A stretch of 61,403 bases of DNA, filler included, from Actinobacteria bacterium UBA7524 (lineage in GTDB: Bacteria; Actinomycetota; Coriobacteriia; Anaerosomatales; UBA912), in the NCBI GenBank assembly GCA_002478275.1. It is 3 parts of 3 records of this genome, joined end to end, with 100 filler letters (N's around TTAATTAATTAA, not from the genome) between each part and the next. Parts side by side here need not be neighbours in the genome. Positions count along the whole stretch, not along the records: positions 1 to 18,050 come from DLMY01000052.1; 2 more parts are not named here. One strand, written 5' to 3'. Below, piece after piece: positions 1 through 18,000 of the stretch (within the stretch, counting starts at the first letter, position 1; the number at the start of each line of letters is the position of its first letter). The position numbers are program-made.

Positions 1-3000
1 GAGCCTCCGTCAAACCCGGGGCGTTTCAGTCACCAGGTATTTGGGCACCAAATCGGGCACCAAATCCGGGACGCGATCCGGCGTGAGTGCCTCTATCAAA
101 CCCGGGGCGCTTCATGAGAAGAAGAGAGCTATATGGTGCAGTTCAGGCTTGAACCTCGCCGCTGGGCAGCACCACTACCCGATCGTCACGATGGCATCGG
201 CACCGCATGCGGCTGCCACAAGCCCTGGCATCGTGCCTTCGGCGCCAACAACCAGCTTGTCGGTCAGTTCGAAGTGCTTGAGGCAGGTACTGCACGCCGT
301 GATGGTCGCCCCAGCGTCGGCAAGCGAGCGCAGCTCAGGAAGTGCGTCGGAGCCCTCGCAGGCGAGAAGCACGCCCTCGTTGACGAGCATGATCGCTGCC
401 GGCGTCTGCTCCTCACGCGCGAGTGAGACCAGGAAGCTGCGCATGAGGACGGCGCCGAGCTCGGCCTCCGCCTTCCCGAATGTGTTGCTGGTTATGAGGA
501 TGCGCTTTGCCATCGGATGCTCCTCTCAGACACAGGTCACTGCCCGCACATGATTGCGCCTATCGGCTATGCTTATTATCCATATCATCCATGTCTATTC
601 TCGTCCATCTACCGAGGGTGCGAACCCATGGGAGGGCACGCGTGAGCGAGGAATCGGTTCGTGAACTGGTCGAGTGGTTCGGCGAGGCAACGGCGTGGGC
701 ACGCGTGGCCGTCAAAGAGGCGTCAGAGGCAGGAACGCCGATCATCGGCCTGTACTGCGGCTATATCCCCTCCGAGATCATCAGGGCCTCCGGCGCGCTC
801 GCCGTTGGGCTGTGCGGCTCAACGCCAGCTGCTGTTGCCGATGGCGAAGTCACACTGCCCCGCAACTTCTGCCCACTTATCAAGTCGAGCTACGGGCTCG
901 CCATCACCGATACGTGCCCGTACTTCCACTTCGCCGACGCGCTCATCGGTGAGACCACCTGCGACGGCAAGAAGAAGGCGTTCGAGCTGTTCGGCGAGAT
1001 GAAGCCGACCCATGTGATGCAGCTGCCGTACGACGCCGACACCGAGCGTGCGTACGAGCAGTGGCGCGCCGAGATCGATCGAGTCGTCGGGTTCATCGAG
1101 GGCGTCACCGGAACGACCATCACCGCAGAATCGCTCTCTCGCGAGATCCACGACGCCAACGAAGTCCGCGCGCTGCTGGCGGATGTCGCCTCCACATTCG
1201 AGGCGGAGCATCCCCTCCTGTCATGGGAGGAGATGCTGGTCGTCCAGAACGCCGGTGGCTTCCTCACCGACCGGTCGACGTACAAAGAGAAGCTGAGGGA
1301 ACTGGCCGAGGCGCTCAGGGCAACGCCCCTTGTCACGGAGGCCGGGAACGGGCGGCCACGGGTGTTGCTCACGGGGACGCCGATAGCTCCGACGACCAAC
1401 AAGGTCATGCGACTCATCGACGAGGCGGGGGGCCGAGTCGTGTGTCACGACGCCTGCAGCGGCGTGAAGATGTACGACAGACTGGTTGACGAGACCGGCG
1501 ACCCGCTCGAGTCGCTGACGCGCTACACCCTGGGTCTGCCGTGCGCCTGCATGAGCCCAAATCCTGGACGGATCGACCTGCTCGCCAAGTCGGTCGAGCG
1601 CTACCGCATCCAGGGAGTCGTGGAGAACGTGTGGCAGGCATGCCACACGTTCAACGTGGAGTCCGTGGTGGTCGGCCGAGCATGCGAGAACGACCTCAAG
1701 ATCCCGCACCTCAAGCTCGAGACCGACTACGCGGAGTCCGATCTCGACCAGCTCAGGGTTCGAATCGAGGCGTTCGTCGAGATGCTTCGGTAAGGGCTCG
1801 CCTCAAGCCATACGCGCCGATCGGAACGACAGGCACACCGTCAACACAGACGGCGGCCCCGTGTATCGAACCGGGGTAGCGAGTGCCGGCCAAGGGGTCT
1901 TCATCGAGGCGGTAGACGACGACCTCGATGATCGCGCGCCACTCGGCGCCGGCGCAGACCTCCCGTACGAGCTGCTCGCTTGCGCGGCAGTCAGGGCAGG
2001 TACTGAAGAACTCGATGAGTACTTTGTCTCTCACCGGGATGGGCGGGAGGGCCCGCCCGAAGGCGGGCCCTGCTCGGCGAATGCTAGAGGGTGATGACCT
2101 GGTCGGGGGCGGCGGGGGCGAGCGCTGCGTAGAGATCCGGGAAGCAGCCGATGCTCGCGCCGGGGATCAGCTGGTCTGCGATGTGGCGCTCGTACGCGCA
2201 CTGATCGCACGCCATCAGCAGCATGCCGGTCTTCTCCTGAAGCGCCTGGAGCTTGCGGCCCATCTCGGTACCGTTGAGCAGGAAGAACGTGTTGTCGACG
2301 AAGAAGAACATGCCGACAACCTCCACTCCATGACGGCCCTCCTCCATCTGAGGGATGATCATGGTATCGAGGATCTTCTGGCTGGTGGTCGTGGCGAACA
2401 CGTACGCGATCTTCATCTTGTGGCCTCCTGTGACTCGTGCTGACGGGTTGAACCGCGGCGACTGGCCTGCGCCAGCGCCGCCCTCAGGACGGATACCGCG
2501 AGCTCGCAGCGATCCCTCCGGTGGGCCGGGACTTGTTCGAGATCGGAAGCGAGCATCTCGGGCGTGATGGCGAGGGCATCTCCGACCGCAAGACCTGTCG
2601 CCATTTCGGTCAGCCGGCTGGATGCGGCGACCATAGTCACGCAGGTGCTCGAGCGAAAGGCGACGGCGTCGATCGTGTCGCCCGAGACGCGCACGCTCAC
2701 ACGAACGACGACGTTGTCCTTCGTCTCCTCGGCCATCCCGTCACACGGCTCGAGATCGCCGACGTTGCGAGGCGAACGGAAATGGTCGATGAGCGTCGCG
2801 GAATACGGATGCATGGTGCACGGGCCCCTCAGCTCGCGGTCCAGCACCATACTATCGTATTGTCTGATGCTGGTCATCCAGGATGCTTATGGCTGAAAGT
2901 GATCTGGGCCTCAGCAGTCGCAGCGGGGCTCCTCACCACTGAGCCACTGCCTGATGATCGCGTGAGCACAGCCCACGCCGGGACTGAGCGATATCGCGCC

Positions 3001-15000: not shown

Positions 15001-18000
15001 CACGCGCTTGGCGCCCTTGTGTGCCACACCCTCGCCCGCAGCGACGCGCTGGTCGAGCTCGTCAGCGAGCGCGTTCATCATCTGGGTGAAACGCGGTACG
15101 TCATCGTAGAAGGCCACCTGCGTTGCGAGCAGGCGGTCCTTGCCGGAGATCGGCGCCGGGTCGGCTTTGCACGCCGCGGCGATGCGCTGTAGCGCGCGGC
15201 GCTTGTCGTTCACTTCCTTGATCGACGCGCGTAGGCTCTCGGCGGTGATGGTGTTGCCGGTGATCTCCTCGGCCTTCTTCACCAGCTCTCGGATCTCGCC
15301 CTTCCACATCTCCAGGTCCTGCGGACGCTTCATCTGCGGAAGCTCCATGACCCACGTGTTGTGGATCTCGCCGAGGAGCTCGTAGGCCTTCTTCTTGCCG
15401 TCGCACGTGGTCTCGCCGATGACGAGGTCCGCCGACTCGATGTATGGACACACCTTCGCAAGTTTGAAGCCCATGAAGCTCTTGATGAGCGCGCAGGTGT
15501 TGCGCGGCATGATCTGCTCGACCTGGTCGTAGGCGAACTCCGCGCCGGCGCACAGGCCCACGCACCAGCCACCCGCCGCGCGGATGATCTCCTCGGGCAC
15601 GTAGAGACAGAACGTGCCGAAGACCTTGCCGCCGGCCTTGCGGAAGTCGTCGAGCTCCTTGATGCGAAGACCGTGGACCTCGGAGAGCACGAAGTTGAGG
15701 TAGTCCATGCCCTTCGGGCGGTTCTCCTGCGTGAGGTAGGCATCGCCGAACAGCTGGCCCACCGCGCCGAGCAGCGCGTCGTGCGAAGGCAGGTCGAGGC
15801 CGAGCTCGGCCCACATCGGATGATAGTCGACAGACTGATCGCTCATTGGGAACCTCCTGCTACTCAGTTTCCTTATCGGGCTGTTCCGATATGCTTATAC
15901 CTTGTATCACAGTGGGGCCCCAGTTGGGAACGGGGAGATCCGGCCTACCGCTCTACGGGATAGCTGCCGAGCACCTTCACTTCGCGCAGATTCAGGCGCA
16001 GGCAGTCGAGTGCGAGGCGCATGCGGGGATCCTCAACGTGACCTTCGAGGTCCACGAAGAGCATTCAGTCACCGAGCGCTCTGAGGTCAGCGCTCACGCC
16101 TGGCTGGCAGGATGCCGACGAAACCTGATGCATGCAGCGCGGGCCGCTTGGACCCGATGCTGCAGGGGGCGACCAGATGGCCTACTTCTGCGCCGTCCAG
16201 GAATAGGAGGCGAAGGTAACGCCCACCATGGAGAAGTCCATGTTCCCGGTGATCACGATCTGGCTGCCGCTCCTGCTCGCCGTACCCTTGAACTGACACA
16301 GAACCGCTGTGCCATCCTCCTCCATACTCACGAAGAAACTGACAGCGCTGCCTGCGCATTGTGCTTCGCCGCCATAGCCGTTCACGTTCACTGTGCCTGT
16401 CCCGGCTTCGTTGAGTTGCAGTGTCACCGGCAGGCTCTTTGGAGACTCCACGTCTTCTTCCAGATGTTGCAGTGCTGCGCTCGCGCTATAGGTGCCAGCC
16501 ATTTCTTCGGCTGAAATGGGTCCCGTGGCAGGATCTTCTTGCGCTCCGGTCAGTGCGCCTTCCTCTTGGTCAGAAGGAGCAGTCTCCTGAGGCTGCGTGC
16601 TTTGGCTGTCACTCTCTTTCGCCGCGCGCTCCTTCGCCTCCCGCGCCTCCATCGCCGCGTTCATGTCTTCATCCGCAGCAGAGTTGATGCTCCACACAGG
16701 GTCGCAACCCATGAGGAGCATCGCCACCAGTATGGTGCAGAGAGCGACCTTAGTGCGGTCCGCGCGTGCTGCCTCCACGACATCCACCTCCATCGAGTAG
16801 CCACGGGTCGAGCGCCTCGCGCAGCTCCGCAAGCACCGGACCGATCGGGCCGGCCTCGACCTGCACGAGATCAAGGTCCTCCGAGTAGCGCCCCGGAAGA
16901 TCGAAGTGGAGCTTGTGCAGAGCGGTCCCGCCGCGGAAGGCGAGCGCCTCTCGCAAGGAAGGGCGGCCGAAGATCGCGGTGAGGGCTCTCGACAAGACCA
17001 GGTCCTGCTCGACCTGCTCGTCTTGGGGCCACGGCGCAGAAGCTCTCCAAGCCGTGATCTGGGCCCGGGGGATCACAGATCGATCTCCACATCCAGGTTC
17101 GGGATCACGCGCCAGGGACTGACGGCATCGGCGGCGCCCCGAGGCGCGTCGGAAGCGAGCGCAACGGTCCGATACCGTTTGGAGCCGAGGACTCGGAGTA
17201 ACGAGTCGGCGAGCCGGGGCTGACCCGCTCGGTCCAACAGGTAGCCGAGGCGCTGGATCGCGGGGGTCTTGCGCAGTTGCGCGACCGCGCCGAGAGCTTC
17301 GGGTTCGAGGCGCTCAGCGAGCTCGAGCAGCACCGTGGCGACATTGCTCCAGCCACCGCAGGCCTCCGAGTAGCGCACGAGATCGAACGCCGTCGATTCA
17401 GGCGTGGACACGAGCATGGTGCCGGTCTCCGTCTGAACCCGGGTGGCGGGAGTCTCCCCGACCTGACGACTCATGTGGAAGGTGATGCGCGCGCGTCCTG
17501 CCACGCCCCCGCGGGTGGGACGGTCGGTGACGACCTGAAACGTCATCGGCTGCTGATGAGAAGCGCCGTGGATGGCTGCTGCGGATAGCAATCCCACGTA
17601 GTAGGGCTGGCCGAGGAAGCCCATCAGGTCGTCGATGAACCACGAGGGCGGCGGAGAGCCAGCCGTGCGGTACTCGGTGGGCACGATCACGTAGAAGCCG
17701 CGACGCGGCGCCACGATGCGACCACGCTTCTTGAGCCGGCGAAGGGCGTTGTCGACCGCTATCTCAGACGTCGGAAGTGCGGCTCGCGCATCCGCGTGAG
17801 AGAACGTGTAGATCCCCGTTGCCTGAAGCTGTTCGACGAACGCCGAGACGTCTTCAGGGGCTGTCACGTCTTGAATCGCCATTTCACTTTCATAAGATAG
17901 CGCTCAACGCTGCTTTACGCAAGTAGATTGGCGTCTCGGAAGGAAGTTGGGAGCGACGCGACGCCAATGGAATCGGGCGACGAATCGGGCGACAAATCAG

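Follow-up and report, generated by a model that had tools for sequence, protein, structure and literature searches.

In Actinobacteria bacterium UBA7524 (G000), a second hgcAB pair is located inside a sao operon, where it lies between saoL and iscU-saoD together with a putative two-gene reductase module, ActHGD and HGD2. The locus is a genomic island of about 18.9 kb, bounded by direct repeats and found in uncultured, anaerobic Coriobacteriia of the OPB41/Anaerosomatales type. The window analyzed is a stretch of 61,403 nt, of which positions 1-18050 are a single 18,050-bp contig (G000:C41) that holds all of the features in Table 1. Genes were called with NCBIfam equivalog profiles and their cut-offs, with Pfam added. 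The co-directional array comprises 17 genes, all on the minus strand, from DCC1 to a second SaoT-like gene, and by coordinates its largest intergenic gap is the 89 nt between saoC and saoX. SaoT, SaoE, SaoC, SaoX, SaoB, SaoP, SaoA, SaoL, SaoD, HgcA, HgcB and the two double-cubane reductases score over their NCBIfam cut-offs, in agreement with the first-pass annotation, which had also placed hgcAB correctly within the operon. The same annotation described DCC2 as divergent from the operon; coordinates and strands make it convergent, tail to tail.

Table 1. Features of the island on contig C41 (NCBIfam results are given as bits/cut-off)
Feature	Position	Strand	Evidence or remark
Left copy of bracketing multi-copy repeat, fragment at contig end	27-93	.	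Matches C34, C55, C7, C22, G004:C106
DCC2, double-cubane-cluster reductase, convergent with operon	642-1793	+	NF040772 430/350; Pfam HGD-D 341 bits
Second thioredoxin-like protein, CPDC motif, weakly SaoT-like	1753-2034	-	NF040730 24.9 bits, under cut-off 65; last array gene
saoD, DsrE-related	2084-2416	-	NF040732 180/169
IscU/NifU-N-like scaffold protein	2413-2877	-	Pfam NifU_N 67.5 bits
hgcB, 2x[4Fe-4S] ferredoxin, ends CDC	2911-3186	-	NF040864 125.5/99
hgcA, corrinoid protein	3198-4292	-	NF040863 404.6/275, profile positions 1-323 of 325
HGD2, HGD-D-family beta-like subunit, 405 aa	4346-5563	-	Pfam HGD-D 110 bits; NF040772 only 42 bits
ActHGD, activase::HGD-D fusion, 688 aa	5526-7592	-	TIGR00241 233 bits; NF040772 219, under cut-off 350
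saoL, MerB-like lyase, in-frame TGA 7781-7783	7643-8287	-	NF040728 158/140 (part before TGA)
SECIS-like 7-bp hairpin, starts 14 nt past saoL UGA	7751-7769	-	RNAalifold, 6 loci
saoA, ABC ATPase	8284-9177	-	NF040729 413/360
saoP, ABC permease, Cys form	9162-9986	-	NF040733 373/295; no internal stop
saoB, substrate-binding protein, CC at residues 71-72	9932-10744	-	NF040727 269/140
saoX, NMT1-type substrate-binding protein	10754-11902	-	NF040735 477/300; Pfam NMT1_2
saoC, lipoprotein-like, C-terminal CC	11992-12447	-	NF040734 140/80
saoE, ArsP_1-family efflux permease	12447-13538	-	NF040736 461/325; Pfam ArsP_1 183 bits
saoT, thioredoxin-like, CPHC	13539-13802	-	NF040730 115/65
Stand-alone activase (Act1)	13815-14594	-	TIGR00241 207/125
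DCC1, double-cubane-cluster reductase	14566-15846	-	NF040772 493/350; first array gene
AbiEii fragment, truncated	16750-17076	-	AbiEii 48.7 bits, only profile positions 1-60 of 238
AbiEi antitoxin	17073-17882	-	Pfam AbiEi_1 129.5 bits
Right copy of bracketing repeat, fragment at contig end	17971-18050	.	Sequence resembles tRNA 3' end

At its core, the operon is an ordinary SAO system, of the type that has a selenoprotein. Uptake would be carried out by an NMT1-type ABC system consisting of SaoX, SaoB, SaoP and SaoA plus the lipoprotein SaoC, with SaoL as the Sec-Cys MerB-like lyase, SaoE as an ArsP-like exporter, and SaoT, SaoD, IscU, the double-cubane reductases and their activase as putative redox and sulfur helpers. 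The start of saoC is probably M40 of the listed ORF, and the N-terminus reads LAGC, which is lipobox-like. DCC1 has seven cysteines (residues 80, 99, 118, 148, 313, 346 and 379), Act1 is 75-89% identical to activases of the relatives' sao loci, and the relatives' DCC2 alignments begin at about residue 57 of an ORF with its start at 507. The second thioredoxin-like protein is 99% conserved in two near-identical contigs. The saoD product is 93% identical to SaoD of genome G044, in which an IscU-like gene likewise lies between saoL and saoD.

The operon had been called all-cysteine, with a separate 43-aa ORF beyond saoL. Both points need revision, since positions 7643-7774 encode the C-terminus of SaoL after an in-frame TGA, and readthrough gives the CU form (...NWAGSC-U-NVMNFFC...GLE). 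TGT-TGA and the conserved tail occur in all six sao loci of the order that cover the end of saoL, and readthrough lengthens the Pfam MerB match from 2-78 of 126 positions (67.5 bits) to 2-126 of 126 (105 bits). SaoL is therefore predicted to be a CU selenoprotein, with selenocysteine presumably inserted at the TGA. The hairpin downstream of that codon has seven pairs across the six loci, two of them with compensatory changes and none with broken cells; an Rfam search with it gave no match. SelA was found in G004, a second Anaerosomatales genome that carries the island, and neither SelA nor tRNA-Sec was found in G000, which is 83% complete.

The hgcAB genes of C41 are a canonical pair that originated within the order and is related to the pairs of family f23. 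As the first-pass annotation had reported, HgcA has the cap-helix motif NVWCAAGK and CC and CCC motifs at its N-terminus (MSECCGPPQSCCC), and HgcB ends in CDC. All of these features are usual within the order, where HgcB tails are commonly SCDC or SCGC. In the tree, HgcA of C41 clades with HgcA of family f23 (support 91/94) and not with the copy on C47, a second, ordinary hgcAB of G000 whose HgcA groups with that of a genome of the same family, G146 (support 100/98).

ActHGD and HGD2 have a history of their own. ActHGD consists of an ASKHA ATPase domain, in which both cluster cysteines are present (MNDKCAAGTG and SSQCVVFAESE, aligned with Act1), and an alpha-like HGD domain that keeps six of the seven double-cubane cysteine columns; HGD2 keeps three of the seven. 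Matches of ActHGD to sequences in the PDB include MbdQ, HadI, DCCP (6eno, 7yyl) and BzdN (8s02). Judged by sequence, the two proteins are probably the alpha and beta subunits of an ATP-driven low-potential reductase of the HGD/BCR family. None of the other 144 genomes of the order has an orthologue of the pair; elsewhere it occurs as a conserved module of two genes at seven orthologous loci. HGD2 orthologues that are 47-68% identical lie beside the fusion in MAGs of Geobacteraceae, Pelobacter, Opitutaceae, Puniceicoccales and Myxococcales. The module was transferred from outside the order. MAGs of Geobacteraceae hold its closest relatives, and two of these MAGs have pairs with 78% and 74% identity for ActHGD and 68% and 64% for HGD2.

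The G004 copy of the island has 174-nt direct repeats that are 93% identical and 18,863 nt apart. Each end of C41 has the repeat, as do at least seven other contigs of G000; ARAGORN found no whole tRNA in the flanks of the G004 island. Beyond the repeat is an IS transposase, joined in metagenome contig L125 by an ImmA/IrrE-type HTH-peptidase gene and a Beta_protein gene, and the AbiE genes within the island are mobile-element cargo. A near-identical contig had been noted in a second Anaerosomatales genome despite rpoBC identity of about 80%, and this holds: across 13.7 kb, G004:C106 matches C41 at 99.6% identity. Between bins of two families whose rpoB DNA is 80% identical, the island shows 99.6-99.9% identity. 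SaoL is present in none of the four other family f1 genomes and in one of eight genus g5 genomes, which makes the island unusual for either bin; its host is uncertain. C41 and G004 differ by a single synonymous change in the 4.7-kb insert, which is too little for selection on the inserted genes to be demonstrable.

The linkage of hgcAB to sao is a single evolutionary event, confined to one near-clonal island. The first-pass counts were reproduced here: of the 146 genomes of the order, 8 encode SaoL, five relatives have the order DCC1-activase-saoTECXBPAL-...-DCC2 with the insert absent, and a sixth contig stops at saoL. In G044 the genes saoL-iscU-saoD-DCC2 are contiguous with nothing inserted, which marks the insertion site. 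None of the 22 other hgcA loci in genome_contigs has sao or HGD genes, again as claimed, and sao-specific genes and the HGD-D pair are absent from all 70 other hgcA loci (22 + 28 + 20, subsets that are not de-duplicated and include many short metagenome contigs). Likewise, hgcA was not found within 10 kb of any of 24 other saoL loci. SAO and HgcAB do not require each other: within the order, no SaoL match was obtained in 82 of the 90 genomes with hgcA, and outside it hgcA is missing from 12 of the 16 genomes that have SaoL.

C41 is short, its MAG is incomplete, both contig ends are in repeats and the same DNA was binned into genomes of two families, all of which might suggest an assembly or binning artefact with sao/hgcAB junctions that exist in no cell. 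Such an artefact is extremely improbable, since the same gene order was recovered in three separate assemblies (C41, G004:C106 and L125) and Logan contigs from other studies' runs span every insert junction with 0-7 mismatches. Among the contigs from other studies, one from X6 (4,746 nt) covers 3745-8490, from hgcA to saoA, and two from X8 (5,091 and 3,411 nt) cover 50-5140, from DCC2 to HGD2, and 7132-10542. The 6.35-kb stretch at 2050-8400 is present in 19 public runs from 14 studies. The gene order is real and the DNA is not chimeric. The best overall explanation, to which we give about an even chance, is that two modules were added between saoL and iscU-saoD, the reductase pair and a second hgcAB, and that the array is co-transcribed and serves one pool of thiophilic metal or metalloid. 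SAO would import and export the metal or metalloid and cleave carbon-metal bonds, HgcAB would put methyl groups on the same pool, and ActHGD/HGD2 would act, as elsewhere, on a substrate delivered by an NMT1-type importer rather than in dedicated HgcA reactivation. Alternatively, hgcAB and the reductase could be accidental cargo, carried in the sao operon of a mobile island and perhaps co-transcribed but doing no joint work with SAO. Islands collect cargo, so adjacency may be functionally meaningless, and this one carries AbiE genes, is bracketed by repeats, lies near an IS element, received two modules of different origin, is restricted to one near-clonal lineage with no counterpart at the other hgcA and saoL loci, and resides in a genome that already has an ordinary hgcAB. 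We consider accidental cargo rather unlikely, as the insert lies within an operon, keeps to one strand and shows intergenic gaps of 50, 53, 11 and 33 nt, the flanking sao genes are all intact, the inserted genes are full length with their motifs intact, and the island is nearly unchanged across the 14 studies. The match in theme is also striking, with a MerB-like lyase and CC/CU proteins beside a metal methylase, a match that Haft and Gwadz predicted from motifs alone.

A further possibility, raised in the first-pass annotation, is that ATP-dependent ActHGD and HGD2 are the missing activator that returns the HgcA corrinoid to Co(I). The pair immediately precedes hgcA, at a distance of 53 nt, its activase domain has both cluster cysteines, and the corrinoid reactivators RACo and RamA are likewise ASKHA-type ATPases. 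The relevant part of PMC11588087 states that the source of reducing equivalents for HgcAB is unknown and that Ti(III) citrate is required in vitro. A dedicated reactivator is nevertheless disfavoured, and we regard it as improbable, because the pair is never beside hgcA at its orthologous loci (absent from the fetched flanks in 7 of 7, and from the whole genome in 4 of the 7) and has other recurrent neighbours: genes for NMT1-type binding proteins or ABC importers adjoin it in four of the seven loci (L007, L008, L208 and L209), and sulfur-relay genes (rhodanese, TusA or DsrE) in three (L004, L005 and L008). Only one of the 70 other hgcA loci, L197, has an activase-like gene nearby, and that gene is 4.6 kb from hgcA on the opposite strand with 33% identity. 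Apart from G004 with its copy of the island, no other genome of the order with hgcA has the pair, and a cognate partner for the activase is already present in its own fused HGD domain and HGD2.

The earlier proposal that HgcAB and SAO form one organometallic cycle is thus too broad as a general statement, given a single island and the many genomes that have one system without the other. The claim of a first physical linkage is supported for this island, no earlier description having been found in the literature searched; it does not extend to a general link. The locus, whose function is putative, offers a useful clue to what HgcAB does natively. In the passages of Haft and Gwadz (2022) considered here, SAO and HgcAB are tied only via CU/CC motifs, and the island provides a real, single-lineage genomic link between systems so far joined by shared sequence motifs alone.

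The locus on contig C41 is a selenoprotein-type SAO (selenocysteine-assisted organometallic) operon on a mobile island that has captured an extra hgcAB pair and a foreign HGD/BCR-type reductase. It lies entirely on C41 (1-18050), which is joined by N spacers to C42 (18151-34186) and C43 (34287-61403) of the same metagenome-assembled genome, G000 (60 contigs totalling 1.81 Mb; completeness 82.9%, contamination 0.58%). The other contigs span 59.4-65.4% G+C with a mean of 63.1%, and C41, at 64.1%, falls within this span. Scans of long ORFs with NCBIfam and Pfam reproduced the gene list of the first-pass annotation. 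All nine Sao families (SaoT, E, C, X, B, P, A, L and D) score above the NCBIfam equivalog cut-offs (9/9) in one neighbourhood that is contiguous except for the insert, and by ORF coordinates the minus-strand array consists of 17 genes with a largest gap of 89 nt. The double-cubane-cluster reductases at the two ends, DCC1 and DCC2, both exceed 350 bits against NF040772 and have its seven-cysteine pattern with near-canonical spacing (residues 80, 99, 118, 148, 313, 346 and 379 in DCC1). DCC2 had been described as divergent, but its coordinates place it tail to tail with the array, that is, convergent. A promoter scan of 1-18050 gave no promoter-like sites. A terminator scan of the same stretch gave six hits, every one of them on the plus strand, where chance alone would give 6.7.

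Genes of the C41 locus and contigs from public runs used to check the insert junctions (paired scores are bits/cut-off)
Feature	Position (nt)	Strand	Place	Evidence
DCC1		minus	first in array	NF040772 493 bits, cut-off 350
Stand-alone activase		minus	after DCC1	TIGR00241 207 bits
SaoT		minus		115/65
SaoE		minus		461/325
SaoC		minus		140/80
SaoX		minus		477/300
SaoB		minus		269/140
SaoP		minus		373/295
SaoA		minus		413/360
SaoL		minus		158/140
Activase::HGD-D fusion, 688 aa		minus		TIGR00241 233 bits; NF040772 219 bits, under cut-off
HGD-D protein, 405 aa		minus		Pfam 110 bits; NF040772 42 bits
HgcA		minus		404.6/275
HgcB		minus		125.5/99
IscU-like protein		minus	between HgcB and SaoD	
SaoD		minus		180/169
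Second SaoT-like thioredoxin		minus	after SaoD	weak
DCC2	~642-1793	plus		NF040772 430/350
X6 contig, 4746 nt	3745-8490			4 mismatches
X6 contig, 1669 nt	2049-3717			
X8 contig, 5091 nt	50-5140			
X8 contig, 3411 nt	7132-10542			

The operon had been read as all-cysteine, which is wrong because saoL carries a TGA that can be read through, a conserved tail behind it, a hairpin and a MerB match that read-through completes. The TGA, at 7781-7783, separates saoL from an in-frame ORF of 43 aa that had been counted as a gene of its own and is instead the C-terminus of SaoL; read-through gives ...NWAGSC-U-NVMNFFCTKKHY...GLE. The TGT-TGA pair sits 46 codons ahead of the stop, and it occurs together with the conserved tail in 6/6 sao loci of the order Anaerosomatales whose contigs reach the end of saoL. 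A hairpin of 7 bp begins 14 nt past the UGA, and across six sequences two of its pairs show compensatory changes and none is broken. Coverage of the MerB Pfam profile rises upon read-through from positions 2-78 of 126 (67.5 bits) to 2-126 of 126 (105 bits). The passages on SaoL in Haft and Gwadz 2022 (bioRxiv 10.1101/2022.07.06.499078) describe a CU site about 50 residues ahead of the true C-terminus, and the CU site in C41 is the one described there. These features of the gene identify SaoL in this order as a predicted selenoprotein and correct its annotation, in which the final 46 residues usually appear as a small ORF of their own. The remaining members are Cys forms, namely SaoB (CC), SaoC (CC at the end), SaoP and SaoT (CPHC). 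SaoL also has a CAID motif where MerB has its catalytic Cys and Asp.

Of the selenocysteine machinery, SelA is encoded in G004, the other bin with the island (614 bits). In G000 a SelD fragment outside the window (C37:55908-56099) covers the N-terminal 68 profile positions, has an in-frame TGA and runs off the contig end, which hints that this organism makes selenoproteins. SelA was not found in G000, nor was tRNA-Sec by ARAGORN, and at 83% completeness this does not amount to absence. Neither the saoL hairpin nor the repeat that brackets the island matched an Rfam family in a scan of 1-18050.

SaoL occurs in 8/146 genomes of the order, in six of them above the cut-off. Five relatives (G044, G120, G083, G032 and G043) have the order DCC1-activase-saoTECXBPAL-DCC2, with the Sec tail on SaoL, and the contig of another (G036) stops at saoL. 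Among the five, iscU-saoD lies between saoL and DCC2 in G044 only. Because G044 has saoL-iscU-saoD-DCC2, the insert can be placed exactly between saoL and iscU. No direct repeats were seen by eye at its borders. A mosaic origin, in which the sao core itself was replaced, was considered and dropped, as identities between C41 and the relatives (43-62%) are slightly under those among the relatives (47-68%). The complete genome of Phosphitispora sp. TUW77 (locus L215, 4622-12581) also has a full saoTECXBPAL array in which SaoL keeps its tail, and an activase and a double-cubane gene come directly after the array. The SaoP of this locus aligns in two adjacent pieces whose junction, at residue 181, may be a selenocysteine codon.

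The arrangement is found in three assemblies, which are C41, a 26.7-kb contig of G004 (C106; 99.6% identical to C41 over 13.7 kb) and L125, a metagenome contig of 22.3 kb (99.89% identity to C41 over 14.3 kb). The stretch 2050-8400 is present, nearly unchanged in sequence, in public runs from 14 studies. Of these 19 runs, eight have at least 94% of the sampled words and five were flagged as possible sources; no RNA run is listed among them. The runs are labelled as sludge, anaerobic digester, groundwater, biofilm, soil, marine and wastewater metagenomes. It might be supposed that the insert is an assembly chimera, and the junctions were checked with contigs from four runs of four other studies. 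These contigs bridge all of the insert junctions, which excludes a chimera.

Both ends of C41 lie in a multi-copy repeat of about 170 nt with iterated short motifs (window copies at 27-93 and 17971-18050), which is also found on C34, C55, C7, C54, C29 and C22, mostly at contig ends. In G004 the locus lies between 174-nt direct repeats that are 93% identical and 18,863 nt apart (copies at 101-274 and 18964-19137 of locus L212), and a third copy farther along, outside the island, adjoins an rve-type transposase. Read by eye, the repeat holds a stretch resembling a tRNA T-arm and acceptor 3' end. No whole tRNA was found at the island repeat in the G004 flanks, and no integrase was found within the island. 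At 16750-17882 the island carries a decayed type IV toxin-antitoxin pair, in which an AbiEi antitoxin gene is followed by an AbiEii toxin match limited to the first ~60 profile positions. Past the repeat, L125 has a Beta_protein gene and an HTH/ImmA-type gene.

The rpoB genes of G000 (family f1) and G004 (family f2, genus g5) are 80% identical in DNA, against 99.6-99.9% for the island. SaoL is in none of the four other f1 genomes and in one of the eight g5 genomes, and hgcA is likewise in one of the eight g5 genomes. The island is thus atypical for both bins, which fits a mobile element that was either transferred recently or mis-binned. Identity between C41 and the G004 contig is ~99.9% over C41:2064-18050 and 96.8% in DCC2, and homology stops left of C41:561 (about 18504 in the G004 contig); the drop at the DCC2 end suggests a recombination border. 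There are 35 coding differences between the two copies, 25 in DCC2 and one in the 4.7-kb insert, too few to test selection.

The inserted hgcA and hgcB appear intact by their family profiles. HgcA keeps the NVWCAAGK cap-helix and matches positions 1-323 of 325 of NF040863, including the membrane part. HgcB matches NF040864, with the motifs CNGCALCTQVCP and CMECGACAKNC and a CDC end. The N-terminal MSECCGP...CC of HgcA and the CDC tail of HgcB are usual in the order, in which hgcA is present in 90/146 genomes (63/98 of those of good quality). G000 has a second, ordinary hgcAB outside the window, on C47 (locus L003, 779-2575), in an unrelated setting with PAS, SDR and S-layer-like genes as neighbours; its HgcA (394.7 bits) is 57-58% identical to that of the island. 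A maximum-likelihood tree built from 30 HgcA sequences groups the C47 protein with that of the same-family genome G146 (support 100/98) and places the island protein in a clade together with family f23 (91/94), on a branch that is not unusually long (0.40 versus a median of 0.31). By these relationships the C47 pair looks like the vertically inherited copy.

The remainder of the insert encodes ActHGD, the activase::HGD-D fusion, and HGD2, the beta-like HGD-D protein. Orthologues of this pair were found in none of the other 144 genomes of the order. The closest relatives are in two Geobacteraceae MAGs (78% and 74% identity for the fusion, 68% and 64% for the beta subunit), followed by Pelobacter, Opitutaceae, Myxococcales and Puniceicoccales MAGs (fusion 55-66%, beta 47-57%) and, more distantly, by an Agathobacter locus (46% and 30%, respectively). 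The N-terminal domain of ActHGD matches the solved activases MbdQ, HadI, HgdC and DCCP-R and keeps both cluster cysteines, and its HGD domain matches DCCP (6eno, 7yyl) and BzdN (8s02) and has six of the seven double-cubane Cys columns. HGD2 has three of these seven columns and hardly any match to solved chains. Both proteins score below the 350 bits required by NF040772. The pair is not a member of that family and has the look of an HGD/BCR-family alpha/beta heteromer that carries its own ATPase.

The first-pass annotation had proposed that ActHGD and HGD2 reactivate HgcA. ATP-dependent reductive activators of corrinoid proteins of the RACo and RamA kind have a genomic association with their cognate corrinoid protein that is conserved across taxa. 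ActHGD and HGD2 have no such association with HgcA, as hgcA is in the fetched flanks of 0/7 orthologous loci. Three of the seven genomes, all Desulfuromonadota-type MAGs, have hgcA anywhere, and four lack it. Comparative genomics thus disfavours the proposal, and the reactivation step of HgcA loses a candidate that was appealing but had little support. Alternatively, the pair could serve as an extra reductase on the SAO side. NMT1-type binding proteins or ABC genes adjoin it in four of the seven loci (L007, L008, L208 and L209) and rhodanese or TusA-DsrE genes in three (L004, L005 and L008). SAO supplies the same kinds of partner, in SaoX, SaoP and SaoA and in SaoD, respectively, and because of these shared partner kinds a role as an additional SAO-side reductase would fit better than one in HgcA reactivation.

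The first-pass annotation had further proposed that HgcAB and SAO are parts of one organometallic cycle. The genomic observation behind this proposal stands, in that hgcAB truly lies inside the sao operon, but as a general statement the proposal is not supported. Neither sao-specific genes nor the HGD-D pair were found near hgcA at 22 other loci in genome_contigs (0/22, bearing out the same count in the earlier annotation), at 28 metagenome loci, many of them short (0/28), or within 9 kb on either side at 20 loci of the order (0/20); the three sets were not de-duplicated. At L197 an activase-like gene stands by itself, 4.6 kb from hgcA, the one such case. Conversely, hgcA was found within 10 kb of none of 24 other saoL loci, five of which are the order relatives already counted. 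Within the order hgcA is present in 7/8 SaoL genomes, but also in 90/146 genomes overall; outside the order it is present in 4/16 SaoL genomes. In most hosts, plainly, SAO and HgcAB each function without the other.

Two further associations were seen at individual loci. At 2/20 loci of the order (L200, 7872-8672, in G025 and L203, 11213-12052, in G083) an ArsP/SaoE-like permease, 30% identical to SaoE, adjoins hgcB. A Desulfatitalea MAG (L222, 1-10573) encodes a stand-alone SaoL selenoprotein (166 bits, with its tail after the TGA) 7 kb downstream of an acetyl-CoA synthase/corrinoid iron-sulfur protein/methyltransferase cluster, with a 'dicluster near Sec' oxidoreductase-like gene adjoining saoL. 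This was rejected as a second HgcA-SaoL pair, the supposed HgcA being the CFeSP gamma subunit of acetyl-CoA synthase (605 bits); it places a MerB-like lyase close to a paralogous corrinoid methyl-transfer system, at one locus only.

Functional coupling of HgcAB and SAO in the island lineage is plausible because the insertion is inside the operon and tightly spaced, with intact genes and a matching theme, but it rests on a single event. It is conceivable, if on balance doubtful, that the island HgcAB is here in its native job, methylating a thiophilic metal or metalloid (not necessarily Hg) that SAO imports, with the Sec-Cys site of SaoL cleaving the carbon-metal bond and the ArsP-like SaoE exporting the product, so that formation and cleavage of the bond would belong to one regulated cycle. 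If so, the island would give genetics its first access to the physiological substrate of HgcAB and to SAO chemistry. An operon-level fusion, even in one lineage, makes the native functions of HgcAB and of SAO a concrete testable pair: whether the product of the island HgcAB is a substrate of SaoL, and which ligands SaoX and SaoB take up.

Full-text searching, the scope of which did not extend to Table S1 of Haft and Gwadz (52 loci), found no earlier description of an hgcAB-sao linkage, in keeping with the claim that this is the first physical link; the passages of Haft and Gwadz 2022 that bear on the subject tie SAO to HgcAB through CU/CC motifs only. McDaniel et al. 2020 (PMC7438021), in the relevant sections, assign all hgcA-positive Coriobacteriia to OPB41 and report no common hgcAB neighbourhood except an upstream regulator. 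Another report (PMC11588087) states that it is not known where HgcAB obtains its reducing equivalents.

As named by Haft and Gwadz 2022, SAO is encoded in Clostridium botulinum, C. difficile and ~50 other anaerobes, with double-cubane neighbours in 21/52 species according to the sections that treat these loci. The C41 locus resembles that system in the saoTECXBPAL...D order of its nine families, in the CU site ~46 residues from the end of SaoL, and in being adjoined by double-cubane reductases and an activase. It differs in having genes for an activase::HGD-D fusion, an HGD-D protein, HgcA, HgcB and an IscU-like protein between saoL and saoD, and in having SaoL as its sole predicted selenoprotein, with SaoB, SaoP, SaoC and SaoT in Cys forms. 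It also has an actinobacterial host and lies on a repeat-bounded island, whereas the sao locus of C. difficile is described in the same preprint as chromosomal and among housekeeping-like genes.

Compared with HgcAB of Pseudodesulfovibrio mercurii ND132 and Geobacter sulfurreducens, the island pair is alike in exceeding both cut-offs, in the cap-helix and near-complete profile match of HgcA, and in the two CX2CX2CX3C motifs and C-terminal Cys pair of HgcB. Unlike those proteins, it is a predicted methylase encoded by a second genome copy that is on an island and lacks its own upstream gene, and it has CC rather than Sec (CU) at the N-terminus and ends in CDC rather than CC, both usual in the order. 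ActHGD resembles DCCP/DCCP-R (6eno, 7yyl) and the Bzd/Mbd class I benzoyl-CoA reductases (8s02, 9gai), its activase matching MbdQ, HadI and DCCP-R and its HGD domain DCCP and BzdN; the inserted pair is unlike them in the fusion of the activase to an alpha-like subunit, in the few Cys columns of HGD2 and in falling below the NF040772 cut-off. Like mer operons with merB, the island encodes a MerB fold that, after read-through, covers the entire Pfam profile. Unlike them, it is without merA, merR, merT and merP, and its lyase has a predicted selenocysteine and is paired with uptake and a methylase, not with Hg(II) reduction.
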